NCBI GenBank assembly: GCA_945883805.1
Contig: CAMCYE010000005.1
Span: 5,269-69,268, forward strand
DNA from: Victivallis vadensis
GTDB taxonomy: Bacteria; Verrucomicrobiota; Lentisphaeria; Victivallales; GWF2-50-93
DNA length: 64,000 bases
Reading direction: 5' to 3'
Shown here: positions 42,148-59,559 of the stretch, one piece after another
Layout of the letters: the number at the start of each line of letters is the position of its first letter
Numbering within the stretch: the stretch's first letter is position 1
Position numbers and translations under genes: made by a program
Notes under the pieces: model-generated
What the model was told of the DNA's origin: nothing
Databases searched by the model: none
Seen by the model: the letters and a program-made list of their open reading frames with translations, nothing else

Positions 42148-42999
42148 TCATTGCCATACCCTCTTCTTCACGCTTGTGAACCTCTGCGTCTGCACGTAGA
42201 TGTCTGTACCGGAAGCGGCTGTATAGGTATTTCTTGCAATTTTCTCAACGCCTTCAATGCCTATCTTTTCAGCGTGCCCGTCGTAAAACCATGTGTTGGC
42301 CAGATTGTTATGCCTGAGATGATAACGGGCATAATAGTCGCCAAGTGAGGCAAACTGGCTATCATCTATTGTAAGATAGACCATCTGAACCTGAGAGTTG
42401 TTCCTGTTTATTGAGTCGGTCATCCCCATGAAGCTCGAAGGGTCGGGCATGCGCCTTGTAAAAACAAAATCAGTGTTATACCCGTTGTACGCCACCCTTT
42501 GTTTGGCATAGCTTGGCAGAGTGTTAAACTGGGGAATGCCATATATGTAATGAGATGCCGTAGTACCGTCCCAGAGGGAAAGGGGTTTATTCGTCGGGCA
42601 GCGGAACATGGTATCTGACTTTATATATCCAAGATGGACATAACCGACGCCAGCAGTATTTATTGAAGTTGGAAGCGTTGAGTCGTAGAATGTGCCCCAT
42701 GAGGCACTTCCGTCGGTCTGCACTACGTAGCCGTTGAAGTCCTCCGCGTACATCAAAAAAGCTCCTAGGCCGTTCTGCTTCAAGTTGTTCATGCAGAGTG
42801 AGGCCTTTGCCACATCCTTGGCATTTTTCAGAGCAGGAAGGAGCATAGCGGCGAGTATTGCTATGATTGCTATCACTACGAGGAGCTCAATGAGGGTGAA
42901 TCTATTGCCTTGTGACCGGCGCCTAATTCCGGTCTCCGCACCCCTTGTTTCCAGTGGACTGTAATCAAATCCGTTTGAAGCCTTGTTTGGAATTCTCAT
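42148..42999 (-). CDS. Prepilin-type N-terminal methylation-domain protein with H-X9-DG motif (DUF1559-type)
   Basis: [30 protein letters not shown], and [13 protein letters not shown] near the C-terminus. Confidence 0.8.
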
Positions 43000-43495
43000 G
43001 ATCGGTGTTCCTTTCCTTAAAATTTATTTTGAACCCGTGAAGGTCTTTTTAACTATTACTTATTCTTTGATTTTTACTTTGTATTTAAAGTATGCCAACA
43101 AACTTTAACCGATTGGTGAGGAACTCTCCGCTCCTCTCTTTGATTGCTTGCTTTTTAAGCAGAATCTATCGCCGCTTCGACGGGCGACTCGGCTTTAATT
43201 GTATCATATTCACTTATCAAAAGCAAGCCTAGATCAAAGACAAACTAAAAATATGTCCTCCTTTCTATTTTCTTCACAGAAAGATATCAGCCCATCCAGA
43301 CGAGCCCGTTTTTCCCGAATTACAGCATCAATGAACAAATATGTTTCCTTTTCGTATACTTAATTATATCATTTTTTTCGAGTCTTGTCAATAGCCTGCA
43401 AGGCAAAAACCACAAATAAAACAAAAAAAAGTTTTGCTTTGTTTCTTCCGACGATATATTTTAATCTCAGTAATTTCCCCGGAGGCAACATTTTT

Positions 43496-44056
43496 ATGCA
43501 GAAAAGCAAGAACATCATAAAGGTAATCCGCAAGCAGAAGGGCATGACCCTCGACCGCCTGGCAAAGGTCACCGGTCTGACAAAAGGATACCTTTCAAAA
43601 ATCGAGCGGGCCTCGGCACTGCCGCCATTCTCCACTCTCGAACTTATCGCCAAAGCCTTCGACATCGACGTGGTGTCGATGATCGAGAAGAATTCAAGTG
43701 CGCACCTGCACCCGGACATCGATCTCATGAAGAAGGGTGAGAGGGAAGAGGGAGACGGGGCCAGCACGCGGGAGAACTGTTCCTTCACATCCCTACTCCA
43801 TTCCTACAGGGGCCGTTACATGAGCCCCATACTTGTGACCTTCGAGGCGGGCGCGGAGCGCGAGTTCGAGCACGACAGCGAGGAGTTCGTGTATGTCCTC
43901 CGCGGGAGCATCACCCTCCTCTATGAAAACGAAAGCTTTTCCTTAAGCACGGGTGATTGCTTCTACTTAGACTCCAGGAAGGAGCACCGCTTCAGGAACG
44001 GCAAGAACGGCAAGACCTACCTCCTGTCAGTATCCTTCAACTACCGCAAATACTGA
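43496..44056 (+). CDS. XRE-family HTH / C-terminal cupin transcriptional regulator, paralogue 1
   Basis: The start is trimmed to MQKSKNIIKVIRKQKGMTLDRLAKVTGLTKGYLSKIERA (HTH_3), with GGAGG 10 nt upstream. The cupin part is EEFVYVLRGSITLLYENESFSLSTGDCFYLDSRKEHRFRN. Same architecture as PuuR-type regulators. Confidence 0.8.
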   Translation: MQKSKNIIKVIRKQKGMTLDRLAKVTGLTKGYLSKIERASALPPFSTLELIAKAFDIDVVSMIEKNSSAHLHPDIDLMKKGEREEGDGASTRENCSFTSLLHSYRGRYMSPILVTFEAGAEREFEHDSEEFVYVLRGSITLLYENESFSLSTGDCFYLDSRKEHRFRNGKNGKTYLLSVSFNYRKY

Positions 44057-44112
44057 TTCCCCGATACCGGCCCGACGCAACGGTTCAGGTTGCTCCGACA
44101 TCTCCTAAAAAC

Positions 44113-44195
44113 AACCACAGAGGGCACAGAGAAATTCTAATTTACAACAGAACCATGACGAATGCGTCTCTTCTCCCTCTGTGTCCTCTGTGGTT
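44113..44195 (+). repeat. Long imperfect hairpin between regulator 1 and the downstream promoter
   Basis: AACCACAGAGGGCACAGAG (44113-44131) pairs with CTCTGTGTCCTCTGTGGTT (44177-44195) around a ~45-nt loop. It is duplicated at 56737-56819. Confidence 0.6.
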
Positions 44196-44260
44196 AGTTC
44201 CAGAAAGAGACTGGTCGATTACCTCTCCCCACAAAACTGATAAAAAAAATCAATTGGCTG

Positions 44261-44310
44261 TTGACACCAAACCTGGAATGCGTATAATATGAATGTTTCC
44301 TATTTGGAAA
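44261..44310 (+). promoter_or_regulatory. Consensus promoter plus TSS-proximal inverted repeat (candidate operator), copy 1
   Basis: TTGACA (44261-44266), a 16-nt spacer, TATAAT (44283-44288), then TTTCC-TATTT-GGAAA at 44296-44310. Confidence 0.6.
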
Positions 44311-44435
44311 TATTTAACGTCGCAACCGTGCGCTTGGCGGATGTTCGGGAACGACTTTCGCGTGTACGTCGAATTGTTCGTACATCTTCGGATCGGGAGA
44401 TAATAATTAGTAATTTGACAAGGAGAGGAGAAATC
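44295..44435 (+). promoter_or_regulatory. 5' leader of the M81 operon (first ~97 nt shared with the mmsA-operon leader)
   Basis: 44289-44391 differs from 56914-57016 at only two positions, whereas the 16-nt promoter spacer alone differs at four. It contains local stems such as GTACG-TCGAATTGTT-CGTAC. I recognised no known riboswitch class. Confidence 0.4.
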
Positions 44436-45893
44436 GTGAAGATAGCAGTAGCCGGTATAATCCAGGAGACATGCAGTTTCAGTCCCGTGAAAACGACATT
44501 GCGAAACTTCAAGATATCCTTGGGAGATGAAGTCGTATTGTCTGCAGATGCGGGCGGAGTGATTGGAGGCTTCCTCAGCGCCATGGAACACTCCTGCTGC
44601 AGTTTTACAGGGACACTGAACGCGCAGGCAATGTCTGGAGGGTCACTTTCCTCAAGCACATTACTCTTTCTGAGGAAAAAACTGTTGAATGGCCTCGGAA
44701 AGGTCCGCGGATTCGACGCCGTCTTTATTTCCCTGCACGGGGCGATGGCCTCGGATGACGAACCCGACGCCTGCGGTTTAATCCTTGAGGACGTGCGAAA
44801 ACTGGTCGGGAGCCGGTGTTTTGTAGCGGTCGAACTGGATCACCATGCAAATGTCACAAGGAGGATGGTCTCGGCGGCAGACGTGATTGCCGGCTATGAG
44901 AAACAGCCGCACGATTTGGCGGTCTCTGGCGCAAAGATGGCCAGGGTGATGTCGGACATCCTCAAATGCGGGCTAAAGCCGCATGCCTCCCTGGTCAAAA
45001 TCCCCATGCTAGCGCCGCAGGACAACTTCCTGACCTCGTCTGGGCCGATGAAAGAATGGTTCAGTCTCGCCCGTGAGATGGAAAAGGACGGGGAAGTTAT
45101 CGTCGCCTCGACTTTCCCGACCCAGCCGTGGCTGGACGCCCCCGACAACGGCTGGAGCTGCCTGGTGTATGCCGACAGCCCTGAAAAAGCGCGGAGATGC
45201 GCCGAACAACTGGCTGCAAAAGCCTGGCGAATGCGGAAGGAATTCTGGCATTCCGAGCGTCTGCCTCTCTCTGAGACCATAGCTGCGGCAAATTCTGAAC
45301 CGAAAGGACTGGTCGTGATTTCGGACACCGGCGACGCGGTGTTAGGGGGCGCCCCTGGAGACAACATGTCGATTATAGCTGAAATGCTGAAGCATGATCT
45401 GAACGGGACGGCGTTGGTTCCTGTCGTCGCACCAGATGCGTTTGCAAAGGCTCTGGCCGCAGGAGCAGGCAGTAAGATCACATTAAGCCTGGGTGGCAGG
45501 ATGAGCGCCGGTTTTTCTCCCCGCCTTAAAATATCCGGGACGGTCAGGGCTTTTGCCGGAGCCGGGGATTTCATGTTCGATGACGGGCGCAGGCGTCCGA
45601 AAGGCCGTTCAGCCCTGTTCGAGCACGGCAATCTGAAAATCGCCATACTGGAGTTGCGGGACTATTCGATAAACCATCCCTCTCTCTACCAGAATCTGGG
45701 AGTGGATGTGGAAAAAGCGCAGATGGTGGTGCTCAAGACCGGCAGCAATTTCCAATACTTCAAAGAATACCAGAGCCGCCTGATCCGCGCGGACTCGCCG
45801 GGCCCGACACAGTCGGATCTCACCGCATTCAAATGGGAAAAAAGAAGCCGTCCACTTTATCCTTTTGATGGCATAAAAAACTGGAGACCATGA
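44436..45893 (+). CDS. M81-family (MlrC-like, DUF1485 + MlrC_C) metallopeptidase homologue
   Basis: GTG 44436 is preceded by GGAGAGGAG. (V)KIAVAGIIQETCSFSP matches the family N-terminus (M-x-IAVAG-x-HETN-x-FSP). Also LHGAMASDDEPDACG ... LDHHANVT ... YEKQPHDL. Confidence 0.7.
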   Translation: MKIAVAGIIQETCSFSPVKTTLRNFKISLGDEVVLSADAGGVIGGFLSAMEHSCCSFTGTLNAQAMSGGSLSSSTLLFLRKKLLNGLGKVRGFDAVFISLHGAMASDDEPDACGLILEDVRKLVGSRCFVAVELDHHANVTRRMVSAADVIAGYEKQPHDLAVSGAKMARVMSDILKCGLKPHASLVKIPMLAPQDNFLTSSGPMKEWFSLAREMEKDGEVIVASTFPTQPWLDAPDNGWSCLVYADSPEKARRCAEQLAAKAWRMRKEFWHSERLPLSETIAAANSEPKGLVVISDTGDAVLGGAPGDNMSIIAEMLKHDLNGTALVPVVAPDAFAKALAAGAGSKITLSLGGRMSAGFSPRLKISGTVRAFAGAGDFMFDDGRRRPKGRSALFEHGNLKIAILELRDYSINHPSLYQNLGVDVEKAQMVVLKTGSNFQYFKEYQSRLIRADSPGPTQSDLTAFKWEKRSRPLYPFDGIKNWRP

Positions 45894-45896
45894 ATC

Positions 45897-46676
45897 ATGA
45901 GCAAACTTCTGGAGGGAAAGAAAGCCATAGTGACCGGAGCGTCCAGCGGCATCGGCAAAGGGATCGCCAGAATCCTTGCCAAAGAGGGTGCCGATGTGGC
46001 GTTCACTTATAGGAACAACAAGGCTGGTGCCGATGCGACGCTGAAGGAACTGGGCCAGTTCGGAGTGAAAGTCTTCTGCATGCGTTCGGACGTGAGCATA
46101 GTTTCCGGGATTGACGCGATGCTCGACGAGGCGGTGCAGGCCATGGGCGGGTTTGACATTATGGTGAACAACGCTGGCATTACCAGCAAATACCCTTTTC
46201 TTGAGATCACCGAGGCGCAGTACGACGAGTTGTTCGACATAAACTGCCGCGGCACTTTCTTCTGCACTCAGCGCGCGGCCCGCCACATGAAGGCTCATGG
46301 AGGGGGAAGCATTGTCAACATCTCCTCCTTGTCCAGCCGAGCCTCGACCGAAGGGTTCAGCGCCTACGCCTCTACAAAGGCAGCGATCAACAAGTTCACG
46401 GAGACGGCGGCAATAGAACTGGCGCCATTCCGCGTCAGGATAAACTCCGTTGCCGCAGGATGGGTTCCAGTTGAAAGCGAAAAGCCCAATACGGAGGAAT
46501 TCATCAGGGAGGCATTGAAGCATCTGCCTGTCGGGCGGTTCGGACTTCCAGACGACATCGGGGAGATGTGCGCGTTCCTGGCGTCGGACCGGGCAGCTTT
46601 TATCACCGGCCAGACCTATTTCGTGGACGGCGGCCAAACCTGCTTGCTGTCCATTCCGCAACGGAAGAACGTGTAG
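45897..46676 (+). CDS. Short-chain dehydrogenase/reductase (classical SDR)
   Basis: TGASSGIGKGIA (TGxxxGxG), NNAG, and the S ... YASTKAAINKF (YxxxK) catalytic motif. Confidence 0.85.
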   Translation: MSKLLEGKKAIVTGASSGIGKGIARILAKEGADVAFTYRNNKAGADATLKELGQFGVKVFCMRSDVSIVSGIDAMLDEAVQAMGGFDIMVNNAGITSKYPFLEITEAQYDELFDINCRGTFFCTQRAARHMKAHGGGSIVNISSLSSRASTEGFSAYASTKAAINKFTETAAIELAPFRVRINSVAAGWVPVESEKPNTEEFIREALKHLPVGRFGLPDDIGEMCAFLASDRAAFITGQTYFVDGGQTCLLSIPQRKNV

Positions 46677-46718
46677 GGAATTTTTTTCATCGGACAACAA
46701 AACATTCAGGGAGAAAAA

Positions 46719-48026
46719 ATGTCAATTGCACAAAAACTGTACGACAGGGCAAAGAAAGTGATGCCCGGAGGCGTGTGTTCCTCGACCCGTTACATTAACG
46801 CCCTTGGAAGGCCATTCTATATAGCAAGGGGCGCTGGCTCGAAAGTATATGATTACGACGGCCGCGAATACATCGACATGAACTGTTCACACGGTGCGGC
46901 CCTGCTAGGACATGGGCATCCAGCGGTGACAGAAGCTCTGGTTAAGGCCGCAGAGCTTGGATGTATCTGCTCCGCCGAGACCGAGCACCAGATAGAACTC
47001 GCCGAAAAGCTCTGCCGCATGATACCGTGCATGGAGAAAGTCCGTTTCTGCACTTCCGGCTCGGAGGCGACGATGCACATGATACGCGCCTGCCGCGGAT
47101 TCACTGGACGCGACAAAATTCTGCGGCTTGAAGGGCATTTTCACGGATACCATGAAATGATATACATCGGTGGCCAGCCCCCCATGGACAAGCTTAGGGA
47201 AAACCGCAGCAGGCCTTACATCGAATCTGCAGGTATCCCGGAGATTTTGCGTGACCTGATTGTTACAGCCCCTTTCAATGACCTTGACGCGATTAAAGAG
47301 GTCATCGATTCAAACAGGAATCAGATTGCAACCCTCATCCTGGAACCGGTGAACTACAATTCCGGAGGCATCAAGCCTGATCCGGGCTATCTGGAAGCGC
47401 TCAGGAAAATCACGGCCGACAACGGCATAATTCTGTTCTTCGATGAGATACAGTCGTCCTTCAAGAAATCCGTCGGGGGCGCACAGCAGGACTTCGGCGT
47501 CGTCCCGGATGTCTGCACCATCGGCAAGTCGCTGGGAGGTGGCGTGCCGCTCTCGGCTTTCGGCGGGAAATCAGAGATCATGGACATGTACAAGCCTTTC
47601 GGAACGGTTCAGCACAGCGGCACATTCAACGCACATCTCACACAGATCCTTCCGGGCCTGGCCTTCCTGGGCGAAATTGAGAAGCCGTATTTCTTCGCCC
47701 ATCTTGCCACGCTTGAAAACCGCCTCCACAAGGGGCTTGACCGCATCACACGAGATCTCGGAGTGCCGGTAATGTTCCCGCACCACGGCTCCCGCTTTAA
47801 TCTCGTTATGGGACTGGGGGAGGAGCCGCGACGCTACTCGGACTTGGAGAAACACGATCAGAGCCACGCCTTCGAGTTCTACCGAAGATCCGCAGAGCTC
47901 GGAGTTTACTATCATGATTACGGCAAAGGCTCGCCAGGCCACAGCGGCTACTCTATCCAGCACACTGAGGCCGACATTGACAAGATTCTGGAGTTTGCCG
48001 AGAAGGTTCTAAAGGAAATTTACTGA
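46719..48026 (+). CDS. Class-III PLP-dependent aminotransferase (HemL/GSA-aminomutase-like subgroup)
   Basis: AKKVMPGGVCSSTR, LGHGHPAV, FDEIQSSF, and DVCTIGKSLGGGVPLSAFGG with the Schiff-base Lys. Confidence 0.8.
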   Translation: MSIAQKLYDRAKKVMPGGVCSSTRYINALGRPFYIARGAGSKVYDYDGREYIDMNCSHGAALLGHGHPAVTEALVKAAELGCICSAETEHQIELAEKLCRMIPCMEKVRFCTSGSEATMHMIRACRGFTGRDKILRLEGHFHGYHEMIYIGGQPPMDKLRENRSRPYIESAGIPEILRDLIVTAPFNDLDAIKEVIDSNRNQIATLILEPVNYNSGGIKPDPGYLEALRKITADNGIILFFDEIQSSFKKSVGGAQQDFGVVPDVCTIGKSLGGGVPLSAFGGKSEIMDMYKPFGTVQHSGTFNAHLTQILPGLAFLGEIEKPYFFAHLATLENRLHKGLDRITRDLGVPVMFPHHGSRFNLVMGLGEEPRRYSDLEKHDQSHAFEFYRRSAELGVYYHDYGKGSPGHSGYSIQHTEADIDKILEFAEKVLKEIY

Positions 48027-48037
48027 ACGGTGAAGCC

Positions 48038-49096
48038 ATGCCCAAGAGTCTGATGAAACAAACCGCTGAGACCGCCACCGGGTTCTGGAACGATTCATGT
48101 GATTTGTATCAATTGAAGGAGGCGCTCGAACACGGAGCGGTAGGCGCCACATCAAATCCGGTGATAGTGACGGCCGTAGTTAAAAGTGCCCCTGAAACCT
48201 GGAACCCCCTGATCGACCGTCTCATAATCGAACATCATACGGCAAACGAGGATGACATTGCCTGGAAACTGATCGAAGAGATCGGGAAAAAAGCTGCGGA
48301 ACTCCTGATGCCGGAATTCAAAAGAAGCGGCGGCGTCAGAGGGCGTTTGTCGGTGCAGGTGGATCCGAGAAACTTCAGAGACGCCTCAGCAATGCTGGCA
48401 CAGGCGGAGAAATTGAACGGGATTGCACCGAACATCGCCGTGAAGATGCCGGTGGTTCCGGCCGGGCTGAAGGCAATCGAGGAGGCGACCGCAAAAGGGA
48501 TGACCCTAACTCCAACAGTCTGCTTCAGCGTTTCACAGGCAGTTTCCGCCGGTGAAGCCTTGGAACGCGGGTTAGACAGGGCTGCGGCCAACGGAATTGA
48601 CATATGCCAGATCCGTCCATGCGTGGCAATCATGGTCGGCCGCCTGGACGATCATCTCAGGCGTGTCATGGAAGCCCGTAAGCTCTGTATCGATCCGGGT
48701 TGTCTAGAATGGGCGGGCATAGCGGTCTTCAAGCGCGCCTACGCAATCTTCCGCAAGCGCGGCTTCAGAAGCATGCTTCTTTCGGCGGCATACCGCAACC
48801 ACATGCAGTGGTCCGAGTTCATAGGTGGAGAAGTCATCGTATCCATCCCGCACGCCTGGTGGAAACGTTTCAATGCCTCTAGCATCAAGGTGAAAGACAG
48901 CATCGGCAACCCCGTCGATCCCGCAATCGTAAAAACGCTAGAAATGAATTTCGAGGATTTCCGGCGTGCATATGAGCAGGAAGGTATGGCTCCAGAAGAA
49001 TTCCTGCAGTTCGGTGCAACAGTGCACACGCTGAAACAGTTTATCGCCTCCTATCATGAACTGCTCGAACTGATAAGGGAGAGGATGCTCAGATGA
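48038..49096 (+). CDS. Transaldolase-family protein
   Basis: GAVGATSNPVIV and NIAVKMPVVPAGLKAIE (catalytic Lys block). 352 aa. Confidence 0.7.
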   Translation: MPKSLMKQTAETATGFWNDSCDLYQLKEALEHGAVGATSNPVIVTAVVKSAPETWNPLIDRLIIEHHTANEDDIAWKLIEEIGKKAAELLMPEFKRSGGVRGRLSVQVDPRNFRDASAMLAQAEKLNGIAPNIAVKMPVVPAGLKAIEEATAKGMTLTPTVCFSVSQAVSAGEALERGLDRAAANGIDICQIRPCVAIMVGRLDDHLRRVMEARKLCIDPGCLEWAGIAVFKRAYAIFRKRGFRSMLLSAAYRNHMQWSEFIGGEVIVSIPHAWWKRFNASSIKVKDSIGNPVDPAIVKTLEMNFEDFRRAYEQEGMAPEEFLQFGATVHTLKQFIASYHELLELIRERMLR

Positions 49097-49965
49097 GACA
49101 TGAGAACATGAAGCCTGAACTGGTCTGCGATCCCGCTTGTCTCCTTGCCGAAGGGCCGCTCTGGAACCCAGCCGACCTGAAACTATATTTCACCGACATC
49201 CTGGGATGCAGCCTATGGCGCTGCGACACCGCAACCGGCAAGGTGGAGAATTTCTGGCGTGGATCCGTAAAAGTCGGAGGATTCGCCTTCAACAGGGACG
49301 GAAATATTATATTGTGCGCAGAAAACAGGGTGCTTAAACTCCACTCGGACGGCAGCACTGAAACGCTCTTCACCATGGACTTTCCGGACGGCGAACGTTT
49401 CAACGACATCACCACTGATCCGGAGGGGCGCATTTTTGCCGGCACCATGGGCTGCGGACTGTTCCGCTTTGAAAAAGGTAAAGCGCCGGTGAAACTGCTG
49501 GACGATATCCCCTGTTCAAACGGCATGACATTCAGCCTCGACTTGAAAACATTTTATCATACCGAGACCGGGAATCATGTGGTCAACTGCTACGATTACG
49601 ACCGGCATACAGGCGACATATCCAAACCTCGGGAATTTTTCAGGTGCTGCAAAGATGACGGGTTACCGGATGGTTTGACCATCGATGTGGAAGGCTGTCT
49701 TTGGCTGGCCTTATGGAACGGCGGGGCAATCATCCGTATTTCGCCAGCCGGCAAGATTTTAAGGACAATCAAGCTGCCCGCGAAAATTCCGACCAGCGTG
49801 ATGTTCGGAGGCGAAGGGCTGAAGGAATTGTTCATTACAACTTCAAGTTACGGGCGGACCGACGATATAAAAAGGGTAAACTCCAAAGGGGAGTTCCTAG
49901 GTGGCGGAGTTTTCCGCATTGTGCCGGGAGTGGCCGGCAGGGCCGAATGGCCGGCGGATTTTTAA
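49093..49965 (+). CDS. SMP-30 / gluconolactonase / LRE-family lactonase
   Basis: LAEGPLWNP, NDITTDPEGRIFAGTM, SNGMTFS, PDGLTIDVEGCLWLALWNGG, PTSVMFGG. ATGA overlap with the transaldolase stop. Confidence 0.85.
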   Translation: MRHENMKPELVCDPACLLAEGPLWNPADLKLYFTDILGCSLWRCDTATGKVENFWRGSVKVGGFAFNRDGNIILCAENRVLKLHSDGSTETLFTMDFPDGERFNDITTDPEGRIFAGTMGCGLFRFEKGKAPVKLLDDIPCSNGMTFSLDLKTFYHTETGNHVVNCYDYDRHTGDISKPREFFRCCKDDGLPDGLTIDVEGCLWLALWNGGAIIRISPAGKILRTIKLPAKIPTSVMFGGEGLKELFITTSSYGRTDDIKRVNSKGEFLGGGVFRIVPGVAGRAEWPADF

Positions 49966-50022
49966 ATTCAGAGTTAGGGAATTTCAACGCTTGTGTTAAT
50001 TTAACGCTGAAAGCGTGTGGTA

Positions 50023-50196
50023 ATATAGCCTATGGTTTCAACCATAGGGACTATGATCATGATGATTGCGTCCTGAATGGACGAAGTGTATCCATGTTTT
50101 TGGGTTAGCTACTTAAAAACAACTCCGTCTCTTCAAGACGAACAGATGTGTATGAGCTACCTGTGGTTGAAACCACAGGCTATAATACATTATCCC
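50023..50196. repeat. ~170-bp palindromic element with ~26-bp inverted ends inside the operon-1 region
   Basis: ATATAGCCTATGGTTTCAACCATAGG (50023-50048) against CCTGTGGTTGAAACCACAGGCTATAAT (50170-50196, reverse complement ATTATAGCCTGTGGTTTCAACCACAGG). Each end is itself a hairpin. Confidence 0.6.
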
Positions 50197-50326
50197 TCCG
50201 GGATAGAGAGAAAGCTAATCTAGGAATAAAAGGAAATAACAAAATTAAATATCCTTTGAATCCTGTTATCCTGTCAATAAAATCTTAAATTCCGGAGCAG
50301 TCGGCCAAGTACAAATTAGGGAATTC

Positions 50327-51127
50327 ATGAAACTCAGTTGTCTACCTGTGTCTTTTTATCCGGATTTCAGATCAGGGCAAATGGATATCTCCGGATGGTC
50401 CGCCATGGCTGAAAAGTTCGGCCTTGACTCGATCGACCTGAGCGTACTGATCACCCGCTGTGACAGGTCAATACCTTCGTTCCCTGTTGACACCGTGGCC
50501 ACATATACCGACTTCACGCATCCCGACAAGACAGTCAGGGAATGCGAATTCAACAGTTTCATGGATGATGTCAGGGACTGTGCGAGAATCGGAGCGCGCT
50601 ATTTGCGTGTCACCGCCGGACAGGCTCATCCGGAAACTTCCACCTGCAGCGGTTTGGACTGGGCGGCGGATTATCTGGGTAAAGCTGCGGATTTCGCAAA
50701 ATCTGAAAACATCGGGCTGTTGTTTGAAAACCATTCGAAACCGGGAGTCTGGAAATATTACGATTTTGCAGGAGAACCGGAGATTTATTTTGAACTTGTG
50801 AAGCGTCTTGAGGGCGTCAACATAGATCTGCTGTTCGACACGGCCAATGCGTGTTTCTACAGGCAGGATCCGGTGCTTATGCTTGAAAAAATATTCCCGC
50901 GCGTACGGCGCATCCATGTCGCGGACATCGCCGAATCGGATGATTTGAAGCCGGTCTTGATTGGGCACGGCATTGTTCCGCTGTCGGAAATATTCGGTTA
51001 CCTGGGCCGGAATGGATTTATCGGCTCCTTGTCAATCGAAGAAGCATCCTTTTGTGGGGCCGATGGGGTCGAAAAAGCCGTCCGCGCCACCAGGTGCCTA
51101 TGGCGTGACGCATGTTTTGGGGCATGA
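50327..51127 (+). CDS. Sugar phosphate isomerase/epimerase (xylose-isomerase-like TIM barrel)
   Basis: 266 aa. GARYLRVTAGQ, LLFENHSKPG, HVADI. Confidence 0.7.
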   Translation: MKLSCLPVSFYPDFRSGQMDISGWSAMAEKFGLDSIDLSVLITRCDRSIPSFPVDTVATYTDFTHPDKTVRECEFNSFMDDVRDCARIGARYLRVTAGQAHPETSTCSGLDWAADYLGKAADFAKSENIGLLFENHSKPGVWKYYDFAGEPEIYFELVKRLEGVNIDLLFDTANACFYRQDPVLMLEKIFPRVRRIHVADIAESDDLKPVLIGHGIVPLSEIFGYLGRNGFIGSLSIEEASFCGADGVEKAVRATRCLWRDACFGA

Positions 51128-51230
51128 GCATCACGTGCCGGCAATATTAATAGGATTTTATTAACGACATCACCGGCTGTCGAATATTTTTTGGAATTTC
51201 TGGAAAAATAAATATAAGGACGGATAGCAT

Positions 51231-53204
51231 ATGAATTTCCCAAAAGTCTGGAGAGAGCCTCTCAATGACTATATTCCATCAACACTGAGGATGGAGGCGG
51301 CTCGCTTTTTCAGGATCCACCAGTTGCCGGATAATCTCGAAAAATGGATGGTTGAAAGGAAAAAGCTGAGAGACAGGATCTGGAACTCTCTTGGAGTGAG
51401 CTTTGATAACTCTATCCCGCTGGACTACCATGAGACTGGTACTGTTGATATGGACGGGTACAAGGTGAAAAAAATATACTTTCAGAGCCGGAAGGACTTT
51501 TATGTGACCGGAAATCTTTATGTGCCCGAAGGGAAAGGCCCGTTTCCCGCTGTTCTTTGTTTGCATGGACACTGGCAGCGCGGCCGTTTGACTGAAAGGG
51601 TTCAGGCCAGGGGGCACAGCCTGGCCAAGAACGGTTATGTATGTCTTGCCGTGGATGTTTTCGGTGCCGGTGAACGCTCGACAACCCATGGGGAATATGA
51701 AAATCATGGCAGCATGCTTGGCGCCTCGCTGATGAACATAGGTGAGACGCTAATGGGAATCCAGGTGGTCGACAACATGAGAGGTATTGATCTGCTCTGT
51801 TCGCTGGATTTCGTGGATAAGTCCAGAATCGGGGCAACAGGTGCGAGCGGGGGCGGCAATCAGACGATGTGGCTCGCCGCCATGGATGACAGGGTGAAAG
51901 CAGCCATGCTTGTGGTGAGCGTGGGAACTTTCGAATCATATGTCATGGGGGGCAACTGCATATGCGAACTGCTTCCGGACGGTCTTACCTATACCGAAGA
52001 ATCCGGTGTCCTCGCCCTTGTTGCGCCAAGGGCTTTGAAGATTTGCAATTGCCTTGGGGACGACAACCCCACTTTCTTTCCATCTGAGATGCTGCGCAGC
52101 TATGCGGAGGCGAGAAATATTTTCCAGGCATATGAGGCTGATGGGAATCTTGCCTATCAGATATTCAATCTGCCGCATGGATTCTGGCCTGAAATCCGTG
52201 AAGCGATGCTGGGGTGGTTTGATCTGCATCTCAAGGGAGTTGGACACGGAAGTCCGAAGAGGGAAATTCCCTTTGAATATCTTCCGGAAGACAAGGCGAT
52301 GGTTTTTGAAAAGGGTAAAAGGGATGAGAAAGTCATTTCAATTGCCCGTTATTGCCATGAAAAAGGGGAGCTGCTAAAAAGGGCGTTTCTGGAAAATAAA
52401 AACATAGATGCGCCCAAATCACGCAACGATCTGATGAAAATGCTTAGAATCACTGCATGGCAGAAAATCAAAAAGCCCCATATGTATTCACCGGAAGATG
52501 GATGGGAGCGCATCGCCTTGGAAACTGAATGCGGACGTATGGTTCCGATCCTTTTCAGGAAGCCCTCTTCAGAGGACGATGATTTTCTGATTTTGGCGGC
52601 ACCTGACTCCAAGGAGAAACTGCTCGGTTCGAGCATATTCAAAGAAGCCATGGATTCTGGAAAAGGCTTGCTTATACTGGATCTCTGGGGAACCGGAGAA
52701 ACATGCTGTAATGATAAACAGGAACAAATGTATCGGGATCTTCCGAGGGCTATCTTATGGCTTGGCAGGACATTCATGGGTGAATGGTGCATGGATTTCT
52801 CATTGGCAGCCGCATATGTCAGGATGACATATCCGGAAGCCCATATAACTGTCGGCGGCACCAGAGGAGCCGGACTTGCAGCCCTGTTTTTTTCGGCGAT
52901 TGAAGGAAAGTCAGTTCCTGCTGTTTTGGAAAAATGCCCGGCCTCATTGGTCTTCCATGGGAAAGCTCCGTCCGAATATTCGGCCATGGTTGACTATCTT
53001 CCAGGATTCCTCGTCTGGGGGGACGTTTCACTGGCAGCGGCCTTGACCGGGGCGGATGTCAGCTTCATTGATCCTCTTTACAGCGACTTGGAGCCGGTGG
53101 ATAATGAAGGAATACTGAAACTGAAGAGCGAATTCGACAGCGTCAGGAGATTCTGCGGAACTTCCGGCACGATACGTTTTATGAATGCTAAACAGGGTGT
53201 CTGA
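51231..53204 (+). CDS. Alpha/beta-hydrolase-fold protein (esterase / dienelactone-hydrolase-like), cytoplasmic
   Basis: FPAVLCLHGHW, nucleophile elbow GATGASGGGNQTMW, and a ~300-aa C-terminal extension. No signal peptide. Confidence 0.55.
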   Translation: MNFPKVWREPLNDYIPSTLRMEAARFFRIHQLPDNLEKWMVERKKLRDRIWNSLGVSFDNSIPLDYHETGTVDMDGYKVKKIYFQSRKDFYVTGNLYVPEGKGPFPAVLCLHGHWQRGRLTERVQARGHSLAKNGYVCLAVDVFGAGERSTTHGEYENHGSMLGASLMNIGETLMGIQVVDNMRGIDLLCSLDFVDKSRIGATGASGGGNQTMWLAAMDDRVKAAMLVVSVGTFESYVMGGNCICELLPDGLTYTEESGVLALVAPRALKICNCLGDDNPTFFPSEMLRSYAEARNIFQAYEADGNLAYQIFNLPHGFWPEIREAMLGWFDLHLKGVGHGSPKREIPFEYLPEDKAMVFEKGKRDEKVISIARYCHEKGELLKRAFLENKNIDAPKSRNDLMKMLRITAWQKIKKPHMYSPEDGWERIALETECGRMVPILFRKPSSEDDDFLILAAPDSKEKLLGSSIFKEAMDSGKGLLILDLWGTGETCCNDKQEQMYRDLPRAILWLGRTFMGEWCMDFSLAAAYVRMTYPEAHITVGGTRGAGLAALFFSAIEGKSVPAVLEKCPASLVFHGKAPSEYSAMVDYLPGFLVWGDVSLAAALTGADVSFIDPLYSDLEPVDNEGILKLKSEFDSVRRFCGTSGTIRFMNAKQGV

Positions 53205-53283
53205 TCACTGATCCCGATTTTGAAAGCGATTGAACAGAAAAGTTCATCGCCTTCAAAATCGGAAGTTGGACTTCATTTTCCCT

Positions 53284-55806
53284 TCATGGCTTCTTGAACT
53301 GATCCGCGCTCCTGTTAACCAGGATGATTCTGTCGACAAGCACAAGTTCCGTCCCCTTCATTCCCGGGCTTCCGGCAAAGTGCTTTCTTTCTGCGACGGG
53401 AAGAAGGGCCTCGTCCGGCTTGTTCCCGTATGCCCCCGCCGCGTCAAACTTGAGCGAGACATAGACGTCCCATACATTCTCGCCTCCCGCTTCGAAAAGC
53501 TTGTCCCCAAACTCTATATTCGTATCCCATCCCCTTGAGAACCAGAGCATGCAGTCAGTGGTGGCCTTGACCGTGCCTAGTTTATATAGGACGTATCCAC
53601 CCGGTTTTATCTCATTCAATTCTAAAGAGCGTTTTGCCGCAACCGTCTTTATGTCGTTCTGGTAGAATCCGAACGTGAATGGCAGATCGGGCATTGCCAC
53701 TGGCACCGCATATCCGAAAGCAGCATCCTTGTCCAGGACGGATTTTGGACCCGGCCGGCGTTTTGGATATTTGGGGAGATATTGACGTATCAATGAGGGA
53801 TCAATTCCGGCTAGCTCCTGTGGCAGGGGCTTTGAATGGCCGCCGGCCTGGATGACAGTGATGAAATCGCCCGGCGAAGATCCCCTAGTCTGCTGGCGGT
53901 TGATGCCTTTCTTCTCCCAGGCCAGAGCGAGAATCTCCTTGGCGCTGTTAACTGCTTCTATGCGGTCCGAAAACACCTTGTAGTCGGTATAATATTCCGG
54001 TTGCACTTTCTTCAAATCAAACCATTTCCACAATGCCGCCAAGTCCAGTTCCCGCCTCAATAGACGGACATTCCCCAGAAACCGTTCCGGTTGCCCCTTG
54101 AGCCCTGACTCCATCTGGTCGAAATACGTCTCCCAGCGGTGGATGTTTTCGGCGGTAAGATATGGGAATGTGCGGGCATCCGTGTTTGACGACGTGTAGG
54201 TAACGTTGGGCGGCAGGGCCATTGTCTTGCGGCACTGTTCAAGTTCCGCCATGTATTTCCTAGCCAGAGGTGCTGCAGAACCGTAGAAATTGTCGGTGAC
54301 CTCAATGATTAACTTTTCCGTGTCGCAATTCACATCCTGCATGAGCTTATATAGCAAATAGCTCTGCAGATCGCTGAAGTTGCTGCGGGCGTTGAAGCCG
54401 GCACCCTGGTCCAGGAAGACGCCCTCCACTCCGGCCTTGTGCAGCATCCTGATATTTTTTATGTTCCGTTCGATGTTTCCGACCGGCATCGCCACTCCAC
54501 TGCCGGACGGGTGCGGATACAGCCATGCCCACAAGTGCGACGATATCCTCCTCCATTCCAGAAGATCGCGATATGTGTCCTGTATGCGAGCGTCAGGATT
54601 CTCCCAGTCGGCAAAGTAATTGTCCTCGATATGGGCGAAGTCGACGATTATGTTTTCCGGTAAACGCACACCTTCAGCAAGTGCCGGGGGCTTCTGCGTC
54701 TGTGCCCGGCGGTAGGCCAGCGTCTTGACCAAGATGTCCGGGTGCTTGCTTTTCAGCATCGTACACAGTTCGATAAGATAATCATAGAAAGGGCCGCCCG
54801 GGCTTTTATATTTCTCCTCAAGCTCCTTGCAGGGCTTGCAGTAGCAGAACGGCCCGGGATTGTCCTGGGCGCAGAGGCTCAACGCTCCGCGGCCTCCGAT
54901 GATTGAAATGTGTTTGAGAATGTTCTTCGTCAACTCCTCCCTCAGCTTTGGATTAGAGAAGCAAAGCTGCCTGCTGTCTATGCGCTGGCCGTTATCCCAC
55001 AAGGAGAAAAAATCCGGGTTGGTCGCAAAATAGTTCTTTGTAACCCAGTCATAGCGTCCGGCCTCTTCTGACTTGGGATTAGGAGTTATATAGCTGAAAA
55101 GATTGTGGGTGGCGGCGAGGTCCGCATCAGGTATTTCGGATACAAATCTGTTCAAGTCAGGCGATGTGTTGCCTTTCAGCCGCTGTCTTTTGACATGTTC
55201 GTCGAACCCCATGTTCATTCTCTGCTGGTAGAAGAAATCCAAGCCGCGGCGGTTGCTTACGCACCTGTATGCAAATGAAAACCCCTTTTGCCGCTCAAAC
55301 GGCTCCAGGATGAGTGTGCGCCTGGCGGGAATCACGGGCGACTCGAACACCGAGTACCAGCGCCAGCCCAGCGAGTTCTCCAGGAAATCCATTACTGCGT
55401 ACAAGTTGCCGTGGACGCCTTTGCCGTAGAGGAAAATATCCTGTCCGACGTTGCGGACAACAAATTCCTGATCCTTGAGTTTCAGCATGGGGTCGCTGCC
55501 GAGGTGTTTCACCACAGGCCCGCTGACACCTATGTAGATGGAGGGCTTGCCTGCGGTAGCATCGCTGGGGGTTGTAATCGGAAATTTTACGCCTGTGATG
55601 AGTTCAAGATAGCCGGCCAATTCCTTGGCGGCATAGTCATCCACCAGTGTCGGCGAATCAGGTTTGACTATGGAATAGCCCGTATTACCGTCCTTCGACA
55701 AGAGCAACTGTCCGCCGGTGTCGTTCCCGGCTAAAATGTCTGGGGACGATGCAAAAGAGACAGTGGCGAGAACCATGGCCGAGATGCAATATTTCAGCTT
55801 CATCAT
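53284..55806 (-). CDS. Secreted DUF4838-like protein (GH20/GH67-like N-terminal domain architecture)
   Basis: The start is trimmed to MMKLKYCISAMVLATVSFASS (signal peptide). PSIYIGVSGPVVKHLG ... FVVRNVGQDIFLYGKGVHGNLYAVMDFLENSLGWRWY resembles DUF4838 proteins as I recall them. Confidence 0.55.
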   Translation of the reverse strand: MMKLKYCISAMVLATVSFASSPDILAGNDTGGQLLLSKDGNTGYSIVKPDSPTLVDDYAAKELAGYLELITGVKFPITTPSDATAGKPSIYIGVSGPVVKHLGSDPMLKLKDQEFVVRNVGQDIFLYGKGVHGNLYAVMDFLENSLGWRWYSVFESPVIPARRTLILEPFERQKGFSFAYRCVSNRRGLDFFYQQRMNMGFDEHVKRQRLKGNTSPDLNRFVSEIPDADLAATHNLFSYITPNPKSEEAGRYDWVTKNYFATNPDFFSLWDNGQRIDSRQLCFSNPKLREELTKNILKHISIIGGRGALSLCAQDNPGPFCYCKPCKELEEKYKSPGGPFYDYLIELCTMLKSKHPDILVKTLAYRRAQTQKPPALAEGVRLPENIIVDFAHIEDNYFADWENPDARIQDTYRDLLEWRRISSHLWAWLYPHPSGSGVAMPVGNIERNIKNIRMLHKAGVEGVFLDQGAGFNARSNFSDLQSYLLYKLMQDVNCDTEKLIIEVTDNFYGSAAPLARKYMAELEQCRKTMALPPNVTYTSSNTDARTFPYLTAENIHRWETYFDQMESGLKGQPERFLGNVRLLRRELDLAALWKWFDLKKVQPEYYTDYKVFSDRIEAVNSAKEILALAWEKKGINRQQTRGSSPGDFITVIQAGGHSKPLPQELAGIDPSLIRQYLPKYPKRRPGPKSVLDKDAAFGYAVPVAMPDLPFTFGFYQNDIKTVAAKRSLELNEIKPGGYVLYKLGTVKATTDCMLWFSRGWDTNIEFGDKLFEAGGENVWDVYVSLKFDAAGAYGNKPDEALLPVAERKHFAGSPGMKGTELVLVDRIILVNRSADQFKKP

Positions 55807-56119
55807 GGTGTCCAAGAGCCTCGTTAATGGCTTAGTGTTTAATAGTTGACCTTTTGAAATATTCTCCATTTCTCCCATCCTCCTGTTTTTTTTGGCTCGA
55901 ATATGTTGTTATTTCTTCTTCCATCGCCCCTGCGAATGAATACTGCCGTCCTTGCCTTCGGGCAAATATGTTTCCTTATTGTATACTTTATTATATCATT
56001 TTTCCGGATCTTGTCAATAGCCTGCACGGCAAAAAACACAAATAAAACAAAAAAGTTTTGCTTTGTTTCTTCCGACGATATATTTTAATCCCAGTAATTT
56101 CCACGAAGGCAAGATCCTG

Positions 56120-56680
56120 ATGCAGAAAAGCAAGAACATCATAAAGGTGATCCGCAAGCAGAAGGGCATGACCCTCGACCGCCTGGCAAAGGTCACCGGC
56201 CTGACAAAAGGATACCTTTCAAGAATCGAGCGGGCCTCGGCACTGCCGCCATTCTCCACGCTCGAACTCGTCGCCAAGGCCTTCGATATCGACGTGGTGT
56301 CGATGATCGAGAAGAATTCAAGCGCACACCTGCACCCGGACATCGATGTCATGAGGAGGGGCGAGAGGGAAGAGGGAGACGGGGCCAGCACGCGGGAGAA
56401 CTGCTCCTTCACATCCATACTTCATTCCTACAGGGGCCGTTACATGAGCCCCATACTTGTGACTTTCGAACCGGGCGCGGAGCGCGAGTTCAAACACGAC
56501 AGCGAGGAGTTCGTGTATGTCCTCCGCGGGAGCATCACCCTCCTCTATGAAAATGAAACCTTTGCATTGAACACGGGCGACTGCTTCTACCTGGACTCCA
56601 GGAAGGAACACCGCTTCAGGAACGGCAAGAACGGGAAGACCTACCTCCTTTCAGTATCCTTCAACTACCGCAGATACTGA
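56120..56680 (+). CDS. XRE-family HTH / C-terminal cupin transcriptional regulator, paralogue 2
   Basis: Nearly identical to 43496-44056. Differences include SRIERAS, VAKAF, DVMRRGE, FEPGAEREFKH, ENETFALNTG, NYRRY. Confidence 0.8.
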   Translation: MQKSKNIIKVIRKQKGMTLDRLAKVTGLTKGYLSRIERASALPPFSTLELVAKAFDIDVVSMIEKNSSAHLHPDIDVMRRGEREEGDGASTRENCSFTSILHSYRGRYMSPILVTFEPGAEREFKHDSEEFVYVLRGSITLLYENETFALNTGDCFYLDSRKEHRFRNGKNGKTYLLSVSFNYRRY

Positions 56681-56885
56681 TTCCCCGATACCGGCCCGAC
56701 GCAACAGTTCAGGTTGCTCCGACATCTCCTGAAAATAACCACAGAGGGCACAGGGAAATTCGCATTTATAACAGAACCATGACGAATGCGTCTCTTCTCC
56801 CTCTGTGTCCTCTGTGGCTAGTTCCAGAAAGAGACTGGCCGATTACCTCTCCCCACAAAACTGATAAAAAAAATTAAATTGGATG

Positions 56886-56935
56886 TTGACACGAAACCGA
56901 AAATGCGTATAATATGAATGTTTCCTATTTGGAAA
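56886..56935 (+). promoter_or_regulatory. Consensus promoter plus inverted repeat, copy 2
   Basis: TTGACA (56886-56891), a 16-nt spacer, TATAAT (56908-56913), then TTTCC-TATTT-GGAAA at 56921-56935. Confidence 0.6.
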
Positions 56936-57115
56936 TATTTAACGCCGCAACCGTGCGCTTGGCGGATGTTCGGGAACGACTTTCGCGTGTATGTCGAATT
57001 GTTCGTACATCTTCGGGGTGTTGGAACCGGAAAAGCCGTCAATAGCACCAGGTACATATGGAGACGCATGTTTTTGGGAGTGAACATTACAAGCCGGTAA
57101 TATTAGGAGGAAGTT

Positions 57116-58636: not shown

Positions 58637-58683
58637 ATAAATATGCCGGAAGGCCAATTGATCAAATAAAGGAGGAATGGAAA

Positions 58684-59559
58684 ATGAAGAAGTCGACAAA
58701 GGTCATGATTTCAACGGTTTCAAGTGTGCTGCTTTTGACGTTCTGCTCTGGAGGACTCATCGCAGGAGACAATCTTCTGAACGGAGGCGACGGAGAGGAT
58801 GAGGGGCTCCTGAAAAAATGGACCGGCGCACCCAGCCAGAGGAACACCATGGAAAAAAAATCAGGCGATGCTTCCATCCAGTTATGGGACATAAACTGGC
58901 TCTTCTCGCCCGATCTGATACCGGTTGACACGTCCAAAACGTATGAGCTTAAGGCGCAAATTAAGACGGCAAAAGACAAGAAGCCGACCCAGGGTCTTTT
59001 AGGCGTCCGCTACTACAACGCCGATAAGATGGAAATGTCGGCATTATCGGTCTGTCCCGTCAAAGGTGCCATGACAACATTGGCCGCCGCCGCAAAGAAA
59101 GGCGACAAGTCAGTCATCATCCCGGGCGATGCCTCCTGGACGGTAGGTTCACTTTTCGGTGTAGCGTTCAACGCCGCCGATGACTTATCCGATCTGCCGA
59201 ACCTGTCGGCTGTCCGGATGGTGAACATTAAGAAGAAAGACAGTACGTTGGAAGTGATCCTCAAATCGCCGTTGGAGACGGATTATCCCGCCGGGACAAA
59301 GGTGAGGCAGCAGCGTTATATAGATTTTACAGGCATGGAATTTACCACTACCGACGATTGGAAGGAGTTGACGCTCAAGTTGTCCGGGCAGAACGAACCG
59401 GGCTCCGCTCCAGTGAAAAACCAAATGTGGCTGGGAACCAAATACATCCGTATCGCCATATTCAGCAATATGAGCGGCAAGGTGGACAATTCTGTGGCCG
59501 TGCTTTTCGATGACATATCATTTTCAGAAGTGAGCGACGTTCCAGAGGCAAAACCGTGA
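58684..59559 (+). CDS. Secreted CBM-like / jelly-roll protein
   Basis: The start is trimmed to MKKSTKVMISTVSSVLLLTFCSGG (signal peptide, possibly a lipoprotein Cys), with GGAGG upstream. DNLLNGGDGEDEG opens the mature part as in CBM4/9-type modules. Confidence 0.45.
   Translation: MKKSTKVMISTVSSVLLLTFCSGGLIAGDNLLNGGDGEDEGLLKKWTGAPSQRNTMEKKSGDASIQLWDINWLFSPDLIPVDTSKTYELKAQIKTAKDKKPTQGLLGVRYYNADKMEMSALSVCPVKGAMTTLAAAAKKGDKSVIIPGDASWTVGSLFGVAFNAADDLSDLPNLSAVRMVNIKKKDSTLEVILKSPLETDYPAGTKVRQQRYIDFTGMEFTTTDDWKELTLKLSGQNEPGSAPVKNQMWLGTKYIRIAIFSNMSGKVDNSVAVLFDDISFSEVSDVPEAKP

Follow-up and report, generated by a model that had tools for sequence, protein, structure and literature searches.

XRE-cupin transcription factors of Pseudomonas are local repressors of adjacent metabolic genes; they bind palindromes as dimers, some of them regulate their own genes, and they probably repress by promoter occlusion (PMC7901475). 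Here we describe two diverged copies of a ~1.05-kb module, each comprising the gene of an XRE-cupin regulator (RegA or RegB) and the promoters around it, in a 64,000-nt stretch (the 64-kb window) of contig CAMCYE010000005.1 (assembly GCA_945883805.1) from an uncultured freshwater bacterium. Copy A (43336-44391) heads an operon that begins with a gene for an M81/MlrC-like hydrolase, and copy B (55963-57016) heads an operon that begins with a gene for a CoA-acylating (methyl)malonate-semialdehyde dehydrogenase (MmsA-type). By their domains, RegA and RegB are members of the XRE-cupin kind. They resemble ErfA, PsdR, PauR and PA0535 of Pseudomonas in two-domain build and are of about the same size (PMC7901475); their genes lie beside the presumed metabolic targets, a palindromic operator and likely autoregulation are predicted in the adjoining promoters, and the pair of regulator and target is conserved as a unit across genomes. 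For the Pseudomonas factors, regulons that do not overlap and a distinct motif for each factor are reported (PMC7901475), whereas the new feature here is that two paralogs go with one operator type at six promoters. New as well, and unlike the Pseudomonas systems, the whole local control unit of regulator plus promoters is duplicated, splitting an operon, and the copies appear to evolve in concert.

The best NCBIfam match of the regulators is PuuR, the putrescine-utilisation repressor of Escherichia coli, aligned over residues 8-178, which is likewise a helix-turn-helix (HTH)-cupin repressor of a catabolic cluster with an aminotransferase and an aldehyde dehydrogenase. We rejected RegA and RegB as PuuR equivalogs, because they reach 54.3 bits against the PuuR model NF007408, whose cut-off is 211; unlike in the PuuR system, the genes presumably regulated here encode M81, TAL/FSA, SMP-30 and TIM-barrel proteins. 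The closest solved chain is 1Y9Q (E = 2.9e-6), an HTH_3-family regulator of Vibrio cholerae with 192 residues, and it was used as the template for the Pseudomonas XRE-cupin repressors (PMC7901475). It has an HTH followed by a cupin-like region, and its confident alignment with RegA and RegB is limited to the HTH. We know of no function or operator described for 1Y9Q.

The tufA and tufB genes of Salmonella are the classic case of concerted evolution of dispersed paralogs by gene conversion. Like them, the two modules are dispersed copies in direct orientation that are more alike within a genome than between genomes. Unlike them, the unit that would be converted is a regulator with its cis elements and not a highly expressed housekeeping gene, and conversion looks episodic, with a synonymous divergence (dS) of 0.22 between the copies, rather than continuous. 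The locus would thereby offer a clean, comparatively documented case of operon splitting without loss of co-regulation, in which recombination between the copies keeps both halves of a pathway on one signal. It also supplies a defined predicted operator, GTTTCC-N5-GGAWAY, together with four textbook sigma-70 promoters from an uncultured lineage, and flags a conserved seven-gene catabolic cluster (M81, SDR, aminotransferase, TAL/FSA, SMP-30, TIM barrel and (methyl)malonate-semialdehyde dehydrogenase). To our knowledge, almost no regulation has been studied in this group of freshwater bacteria.

Two copies of a regulator-promoter module

An earlier note on this DNA, made by eye, described two collinear and nearly identical ~1.05-kb copies, each with a regulator gene, a long hairpin, a promoter, an inverted repeat and a leader, and proposed a pairwise alignment as a check. 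We aligned 43200-44600 with 55827-57227 using MAFFT and ran a repeat finder within the window. Both reveal extended identity: 43336-44391 and 55963-57016 (both read on the + strand) are collinear and 93.3% identical, with 71 mismatches over 1053 aligned columns and a few indels of 1-2 nt, and all of the listed parts are present in both copies. The repeat finder places the two starts 12,624-12,627 nt apart and finds 2 copies only in the window. Similarity drops sharply at both edges, and the right edge lies 44 nt 5′ of the GTG start codon of the M81 gene (44436) in copy A and 99 nt 5′ of the ATG start codon of the MmsA-type gene (57116) in copy B, in agreement with the 45 and 100 nt given in the earlier note.

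The duplication is not an assembly artefact. Contigs of sample 3300059473, which is possibly the window's own sample, encode exactly the same proteins and bridge each copy into its flanks; contigs of DNA run X1 span 4 of the 4 outer junctions with 0 mismatches and at an even depth of ~15-19x; and the two copies also share one contig in two other genomes. The flanks of copy B are likewise backed by contigs from other assemblies and runs. The runs that hold window DNA are lake and freshwater metagenomes.

Relatives carry one pathway in one operon

Relatives were gathered through one protein search, cluster members and contig look-ups, and are given here as L numbers. Both scans of a metagenome contig collection found no relative, a scan of a genome contig collection found one useful relative (L001), and one named homolog comes from a Victivallales bacterium. 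Together with the Acido-Lenti-1 motifs of the window, this homolog hints that the source bacterium may belong to a Lentisphaerota-like lineage. In related genomes, a search of which the earlier note had suggested, the cassette occurs beside both the M81 operon and MmsA genes. In L001, L009/L010, L019-21 and L022, whose regulators are 72%, 74%, 68% and 50% identical to those of the window, respectively, a single regulator gene is divergent from the M81 operon, and the short intergenic region between them contains the same two promoter-operator blocks. In L001 and L022, the same M81 operon begins divergently from the regulator gene, and the contig ends before the operon does; the far end of the operon is recovered in two relatives, L009 and L019. 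The single divergent operon of L009 comprises, in this order, M81, SDR, GH39, aminotransferase, TAL, SMP30, TIM barrel and aldehyde dehydrogenase (506 residues) genes. The L019 operon has the same order, except that a DegT-type aminotransferase replaces the class-III enzyme and the terminal dehydrogenase has 503 residues.

Since L009 and L019, the two relatives with the far end recovered, carry a single operon from M81 to MmsA, the two operons of the window are one pathway that has been split. The claim of the earlier note that one system is divided between two transcription units is therefore upheld, and the two units are probably still co-regulated; its description of the module as portable does not hold if it is read as mobile, given that we find neither a transposase nor a terminal repeat and that searches of plasmids and phages returned nothing. 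Furthermore, the regulator adjoins the M81-SDR-aminotransferase-TAL cluster in every recovered locus, over a range of regulator identity of 50-96%, as a local control unit should. L001 (LBWG01000023.1) is labelled Candidatus Uhrbacteria, perhaps through an error in binning; lake or PVC-like bins are the source of all the others.

Three promoters per module, each with an operator

Each module copy contains three promoters, and each promoter is accompanied by an operator of the GTTTCC-N5-GGAWAY type. The TTGACA-16-TATAAT promoter and the TTTCC-TATTT-GGAAA inverted repeat of the earlier note are both present in both copies, and its picture of a single promoter per copy is incomplete. P_down(A), which points rightward into the M81 operon (44230-44288, + strand), consists of the A-rich upstream block CACAAAACTGATAAAAAAAA and TTGACA-16-TATAAT (44261-44288), matching the consensus at 12 of 12 positions. 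P_down(B), which points into the MmsA operon, has the same 12/12 match at 56886-56913 and extends with its operator to 56936 (+ strand). The operator O_down(A), TGTTTCCTATTTGGAAAT (44294-44311, + strand), overlaps the predicted start site at ~44295, and O_down(B) (56919-56936) is identical to it; the inverted repeat lies at 44296-44310 and 56921-56935. The A-rich block is conserved, and P_down is homologous to the M81-operon promoter of L022, in which TATACT-atgg-ATGTTTCCTAATTGGAAATAT is a near match to the P_down operator of the window at equal spacing.

The leftward promoter P_L(A) (43363-43391, - strand) reads TTGACA-17-TGATATAAT with an extended -10 element and points toward an N_methyl (prepilin-type) protein gene, while P_L(B) (55990-56017, - strand) reads TTGACA-16-TGATATAAT and points toward a DUF4838 protein gene. 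Both match the consensus at 12 of 12 positions, and the P_L hexamers are invariant in 7 of 7 aligned loci. The operator O_L(A), TGTTTCCTTTTCGTATAC (43342-43359, - strand), begins 3 nt downstream of the P_L -10 element, and the motif scan places O_L(B) at 55969-55986 (- strand). In L001, L009 and L019, the divergent M81 operon has a promoter block homologous to P_L(A); read on the operon strand, the M81-operon promoter of the relatives is TTGACA-17-TATAAT-taa-GTATCC-N5-GAAAC.

The third promoter, P_reg, precedes the regulator gene. P_reg(A), read directly from the sequence as TTGCTT-17-TATTTT (43437-43465, + strand), is weak, and the motif scan places the operator O_R(A), TGTTTCTTCCGACGATAT (43440-43457, + strand), inside its 17-nt spacer. 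P_reg(B) (56061-56089, + strand), identified by the motif scan and the alignment of the two copies, contains O_R(B) at 56064-56081. P_reg is homologous to TTGACT-[TGTTTCCTTTTATGATA]-TATAAT in L009, L001, L019 and L022. The sequence ATGTTTCCTT, found within the window at 43341 and 55968 only, had been proposed as an autoregulatory half-site upstream of each regulator gene. It turns out to be the left half of GTTTCC-N5-GTATAC, 3 nt after the P_L -10 element, and to belong to the full operator of the leftward promoter; the likelier autoregulatory site is O_R in the spacer of P_reg.

These elements are far denser than expected by chance. The window contains 5 perfect consensus promoters against 0.025 expected, and 4 of the 5 lie in the two modules. 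The fifth, TTGACA-17-TATAAT at 5288-5316, lies ~70 nt upstream of an open reading frame (ORF) of 1717 residues (5385-10538). The operator pattern TGTTTCNNNNNNGGAWAY, with one mismatch allowed, has 13 matches in the window against 1.3 expected, 9 of them within the modules; the operator-like matches at 11417, 16823, 22156 and 50974 are all inside ORFs and were taken as chance. Among relatives, an operator-type site lies 149-189 nt upstream of the regulator start in 11 of the 11 loci scanned, whose regulators are 50-100% identical. In addition, a 35-nt core comprising the -10 element and the operator, GCGTATAATATRAATGTTTCCTATTTGGAAATATT, is exactly identical in 12 other loci, where nearby coding DNA is 87-94% identical. 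All three operator positions overlap core promoter elements, an arrangement typical of a repressor, and a palindromic GTTTCC-N5-GGAWAY operator in the adjoining promoters, here found in silico, is what an XRE-cupin regulator is expected to have. Cross-talk between RegA and RegB and the operators of both copies is plausible.

Four metatranscriptomes, all from one freshwater study, hold related sequence, and their contigs cover the regulator genes. One RNA contig covers 44313-44703, from the leader of copy A into the M81 gene; another covers 56961-57111 in the leader of copy B, with coverage continuing into MmsA. The divergent promoter region, 43256-43412, is covered by none of the metatranscriptome contigs. 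Besides ~44295, starts are predicted near 56920 (+ strand) and, for the leftward promoters, near 43356 and 55983 (- strand). The positions of the RNA contigs fit the predicted start sites, which is suggestive at best.

RegA and RegB are nearly identical

The genes regA (43496-44056, + strand) and regB (56120-56680, + strand) each encode a protein of 186 residues, with matches to HTH_3 (5e-13 for RegA and 2e-12 for RegB) and Cupin_2 (4e-13 and 9e-15); a GGAGG ribosome-binding site lies 8 nt upstream of regA. The two proteins are identical at 174 of 186 residues, and the 12 differences, including every substitution cited in the earlier note, match its estimate of roughly a dozen. In the HTH regions, the differences are limited to K35R and I51V. 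All family-invariant residues are intact in RegA and RegB, as are the invariant recognition-helix block TKGYLSKIER and the cupin motif HDxEEF. The dN/dS ratio between RegA and RegB is 0.12, and both copies are, by this measure, under purifying selection.

Residue 35 (window position 56222) is Arg in RegB and Lys in RegA and in at least 90% of 34 aligned relatives; the change sits in the recognition helix, turning YLSKIER into YLSRIER, and is shared by the cluster member P0107. Among a few copy-specific residues that are kept across lineages, residue 149, for example, is Ser in M81-type copies and Ala in MmsA-type copies.

Two side observations concern regulator genes of the relatives. The second regulator copy of L014 (12890-13016) starts MQKSKDIIKVIRKQKGMPLDRLAKVTGLTKKYLLKIERVSAL and has non-conservative changes in the otherwise invariant TKGYLSKIER helix; it may be decaying, and just 42 of its residues are on the locus. 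In sister species, ATA replaces the ATG start codon of the regulator (L004 8166, L005 1963, L006 696 and L012 1835), and gene callers therefore lengthen the regulator to 205 residues from an upstream start.

A probable old duplication with likeness of the copies within genomes

Two gene orders are found around the modules. In the window and L014, the order is N_methyl(-), regulator, M81 operon, DUF4838(-), regulator and MmsA. In the sister type (L004-7, L012 and L013), it is N_methyl(-), DUF4838(-), regulator, M81 operon, a small minus-strand gene, regulator and MmsA, and a remnant of the DUF4838 leader and start region lies left of the second copy. L008 has DUF4838(-), regulator and MmsA, like copy B of the window, and the genome GCA_965085625 (L007 plus L013) has module, M81 operon, module and MmsA. 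The second copy in that genome, L013c2, has a B-type leader in which the leader segment of the A-type copies recurs, and this leader joins the MmsA-upstream sequence at the same point as copy B of the window, within 7 nt. The left side of copy A is occupied by ~55 nt of unique filler, which is not a clean deletion scar.

Within genomes, the copies are more alike than the corresponding copies of different genomes. The regulator coding sequences are 93.6% identical between window copies A and B and 92.5% identical between c1 and c2 of GCA_965085625, as against 89.5-91.4% across the genomes. Informative quartet sites were counted over an alignment that reaches ~40 nt past both module edges: 45 unite the copies of one genome, 13 unite copies in equivalent positions and 7 group crosswise. 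Within the module alone, the numbers are 43, 3 and 7, respectively, and the flanks group by position, as expected. Consistent with this pattern, dS is 0.225 and 0.217 for the two paralog pairs, whereas positional orthologs have values of 0.30-0.40 and the flanking genes in these two genomes 0.27-0.49. Paralogs are thus closer to each other than positional orthologs are, and the duplication, by the shared B-type junction, would be older than the split, a pattern expected of concerted evolution. We infer an old duplication that has been kept uniform by episodic gene conversion. RegA differs from the first copy of L014 by a dS of 0.12, near the value of 0.08 for flanking genes of the window and L014; homogenisation thus last occurred before these two lineages diverged.

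One further locus, L003 (1-929, JGI sample 3300044990), contains a regB that is 99.7% identical, P_down and ~75 nt of leader; the leader joins directly to window position 58570, so that the terminal 67 nt of MmsA and then the gene after it follow. L003 represents either a natural deletion of MmsA or a chimeric assembly.

The hairpin is a dispensable spacer

A long imperfect hairpin lies between regA and P_down (44113-44195, + strand), with arms at 44113-44131 and 44177-44195 that are 95% complementary. Its presence in both copies, as described in the earlier note, is supported by RNA fold z-scores of -6.4 in copy A and -4.9 in copy B; the hairpin is not followed by a T-run. It is missing in L008, L013c2 and L003; in L004-6 it is interrupted by ~125 nt, and in L007c1 ~600 nt of other sequence take its place. 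We rejected the hairpin as a required part of the module, because it is absent or interrupted in relatives that retain the promoter; to judge from these comparisons, it is a dispensable, polymorphic spacer element.

A proposed repressor unit shared by both halves of the pathway

Starting from the architecture, the conservation, the synteny and the within- versus between-genome divergence, all of which are seen directly, we consider it probable that the two copies are a duplicated repressor-promoter unit on one pathway that is split and co-regulated, with a history of duplication plus gene conversion. Each copy would be a complete local control unit of an XRE-cupin repressor. A dimer of RegA or RegB would bind the imperfect palindrome GTTTCC-N5-GGAWAY at three sites in each module: immediately downstream of the -10 element of the strong leftward P_L (serving DUF4838 at B and N_methyl at A); within the -35/-10 spacer of the weak promoter of the regulator, with autorepression as the result; and over the start of the strong rightward P_down (serving the M81 operon at A and the MmsA operon at B). 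At all three positions, the bound repressor would block RNA polymerase, and a small molecule bound by the cupin domain would release it. The repression, the ligand response, the cross-regulation and the start sites in this scheme are predictions.

As for its history, the ancestor may have had one regulator divergent from one catabolic operon that ran from M81 to MmsA. A single duplication of the segment comprising DUF4838 and the module, perhaps with the M81 operon, in a common ancestor would have placed a module copy before MmsA and the genes downstream of it. Lineages would later have lost or replaced flanking genes in differing ways, including one or other copy of DUF4838; the exact order of these rearrangements is a deduction. 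Gene conversion would have re-homogenised the copies within each genome after the lineages split, with the last event before the split between the window and L014. Since operators and recognition helices have changed so little between the copies, both halves of the pathway and the two leftward genes would remain one regulon.

Several observations weigh against this explanation. The N_methyl gene is uncertain as the target of P_L(A), because the gap between them is ~340 nt. P_reg of the window is weak, with 7 of 12 consensus matches, and in the right half-site of the P_reg operator and of the O_L sites, 1-2 positions do not fit the palindrome. RegA and RegB may not be fully interchangeable, since K35R of RegB lies in the recognition helix. 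The RNA contigs have low depth (2-7x), come from related strains and have ends that may be branch points of the assembly graph, and DNA carry-over is possible in the metatranscriptome contigs. With regard to gene conversion, a test for mosaic tracts gave p = 0.17 (maximum chi-square permutation), with segment identity ranging from 88.8% upstream to 97.2% in the HTH-coding part; the boundaries of the repeat differ between genomes, that of GCA_965085625 extending further left, into the DUF4838 leader, and ending on the right directly after the operator; and the comparison of copy with copy rests on just two genomes in which both copies are recovered in full.

Three other accounts bear on these observations. 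Had each lineage independently copied its own module in front of MmsA, at a dS of ~0.22 and without gene conversion, the grouping of paralogs by genome would be equally expected, and the differing extent of the repeat and the lack of a significant mosaic structure would also agree. However, the shared A-type segment and the MmsA junction common to within 7 nt in L013c2 and window copy B, as well as a leader or 5′ remnant of DUF4838 to the left of MmsA-type copies in the window, L008, L013 and L005, would then call for two identical insertions at the same site in separate lineages, which is unlikely, and we regard independent duplication as improbable. The swap of places between DUF4838 and N_methyl, the difference in flanking genes among close relatives and the hairpin as a hot spot of polymorphic insertion might instead point to a mobile or selfish element, such as a cassette akin to a miniature inverted-repeat transposable element (MITE) or insertion sequence, or to a chimera assembled from two strains. 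Such an origin is very improbable, given that the regulator is the sole annotated gene of the module, with no transposase gene there; that inspection of the module edges revealed neither terminal inverted repeats nor target-site duplications; that plasmid and phage BLAST searches and a viral contig scan returned no match; that the copies number just two in the window; and that, against a chimera, all four junctions recur at even depth in contigs of other assemblies and of run X1. The module shows no sign of being a mobile element.

Homology past the promoter could also arise if the shared 97-nt leader were itself a regulatory device, namely a riboswitch, an attenuator or a leader peptide. The leader of the M81 operon (44295-44435, + strand) is common with copy B up to 44391, and that of the MmsA operon (56920-57115, + strand) is common with copy A up to 57016, the remainder being specific to B and homologous to L013c2. 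The first ~45 nt are partly conserved in both operon types across lineages, the near-palindrome TGTTCGGGAACG (perfect, as TGTTCCGGAACA, in L004-6) follows the operator, and a short ORF, MFGNDFRVYVELFVHLR..., whose start at ATG 44339 is overlapped by this near-palindrome (MFGNDFRV...; 44339-44401 and 56964-57113), keeps its frame in L004 and L013c2, where the indels are multiples of three. Against such a device, the leader is replaced in L007c1 and mostly deleted in L008 and L003, and the short ORF is not preceded by a ribosome-binding site at the usual spacing and does not persist in L008. Searches of Rfam, with the whole window at the gathering threshold and with the module at E <= 10, returned nothing for the hairpin or the leader, and the leader folds show no extra stability over shuffled controls (z = -0.08, -1.45 and +0.19, with -0.08 for leader A). 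We dropped the riboswitch reading because the fold is no better than that of shuffled sequences; a regulatory leader of any kind seems a slim prospect, slimmer than independent duplication. Another candidate reading, suggested by L008, was that the 3′ leader belongs originally to the M81 type and is alien to the MmsA type; we rejected it, as L013c2 has the same segment and L008 simply has a deletion.

A variant of the duplicated repressor unit is that the paralogs are non-redundant: copy-specific residues such as Ser149 or Ala149, together with Arg35 of RegB, would let them, possibly as heterodimers, sense two metabolites at the six shared operators, while gene conversion keeps their DNA-binding parts and operators compatible. 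We hold this to be unlikely, and equally so the suggestion that the two metabolites might be, for instance, the incoming substrate and the semialdehyde intermediate. If true, the split pathway would have a built-in two-input logic gate.

Genes of the two operons and their surroundings

Operon A (44436-53204, + strand) comprises genes for the M81/MlrC-like hydrolase (44436-45893; DUF1485 7e-70, MlrC_C 2e-32), an SDR resembling glucose-1-dehydrogenase (45897-46676), a class-III aminotransferase (46719-48026), a TAL/FSA-family aldolase or transaldolase (48038-49096), an SMP-30/lactonase (gluconolactonase; 49093-49965), a xylose-isomerase-like TIM barrel (50327-51127) and, as the last gene, an AXE1-type esterase (51231-53204). 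The product of 44436-45893 has PDB relatives 3IUU and 7YLQ and scores 160 bits against the MlrC NCBIfam model, whose cut-off is 999; by these scores, it is a member of the M81 family and not an MlrC equivalog. The stretch of the esterase gene, 51227-53232, varies among strains: a contig of DNA run X3 skips these 2006 nt, and L014 is without the gene.

Operon B (57116-62644, + strand) begins with the MmsA-type gene (57116-58636), whose product scores 565.7 bits against TIGR01722 (cut-off 448.5) over model positions 2-477 of 477, as a true member of this family does. It is followed by genes for three proteins without a family match (58684-59559, 59556-61688 and 61685-62644, all + strand; 291, 710 and 319 residues), for which relaxed Pfam and PDB searches returned nothing credible. 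A GH4 glycosidase gene lies after operon B, at the end of the window. The substrate of the pathway is probably an amino sugar or a sugar acid, to go by the enzyme set alone. On the same basis, the chemistry may run from amino sugar through lactone to acid, followed by transamination, aldol cleavage to a 3-oxo-acid semialdehyde and conversion of the latter to acyl-CoA by the dehydrogenase.

On the minus strand, the DUF4838 protein gene (53284-55878, 864 residues) is the likely target of P_L(B) and adjoins the regulator also in L004-L008. The N_methyl gene (42148-42999, - strand, 283 residues) lies leftward of P_L(A). Upstream of it, the 74 nt at 43084-43157 occur in abundant metatranscriptome contigs that run on into sequence unlike that of the window, with a depth of 65 in X24 and a contig of 1235 nt in X26; paralogous N_methyl genes with high expression may have this segment in common as their 5′ leader.

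At the gathering threshold, the Rfam matches in the window are one tRNA and two Acido-Lenti-1 motifs only, all outside the modules. The two Acido-Lenti-1 motifs are inverted relative to each other (50003-50048 on the - strand and 50160-50205 on the + strand) and lie in the spacer between the SMP-30 and TIM-barrel genes (49966-50326). One contig of a DNA run skips 49972-50319 (348 nt), sister loci have ~72 nt there, and the depth of the spacer is 77-239x in two runs against ~20x nearby. The spacer looks like a multi-copy, insertion-polymorphic, MITE-like element with the motif forming its ends; if true, this would bear on the real nature of Acido-Lenti-1 as an orphan family of small RNAs.

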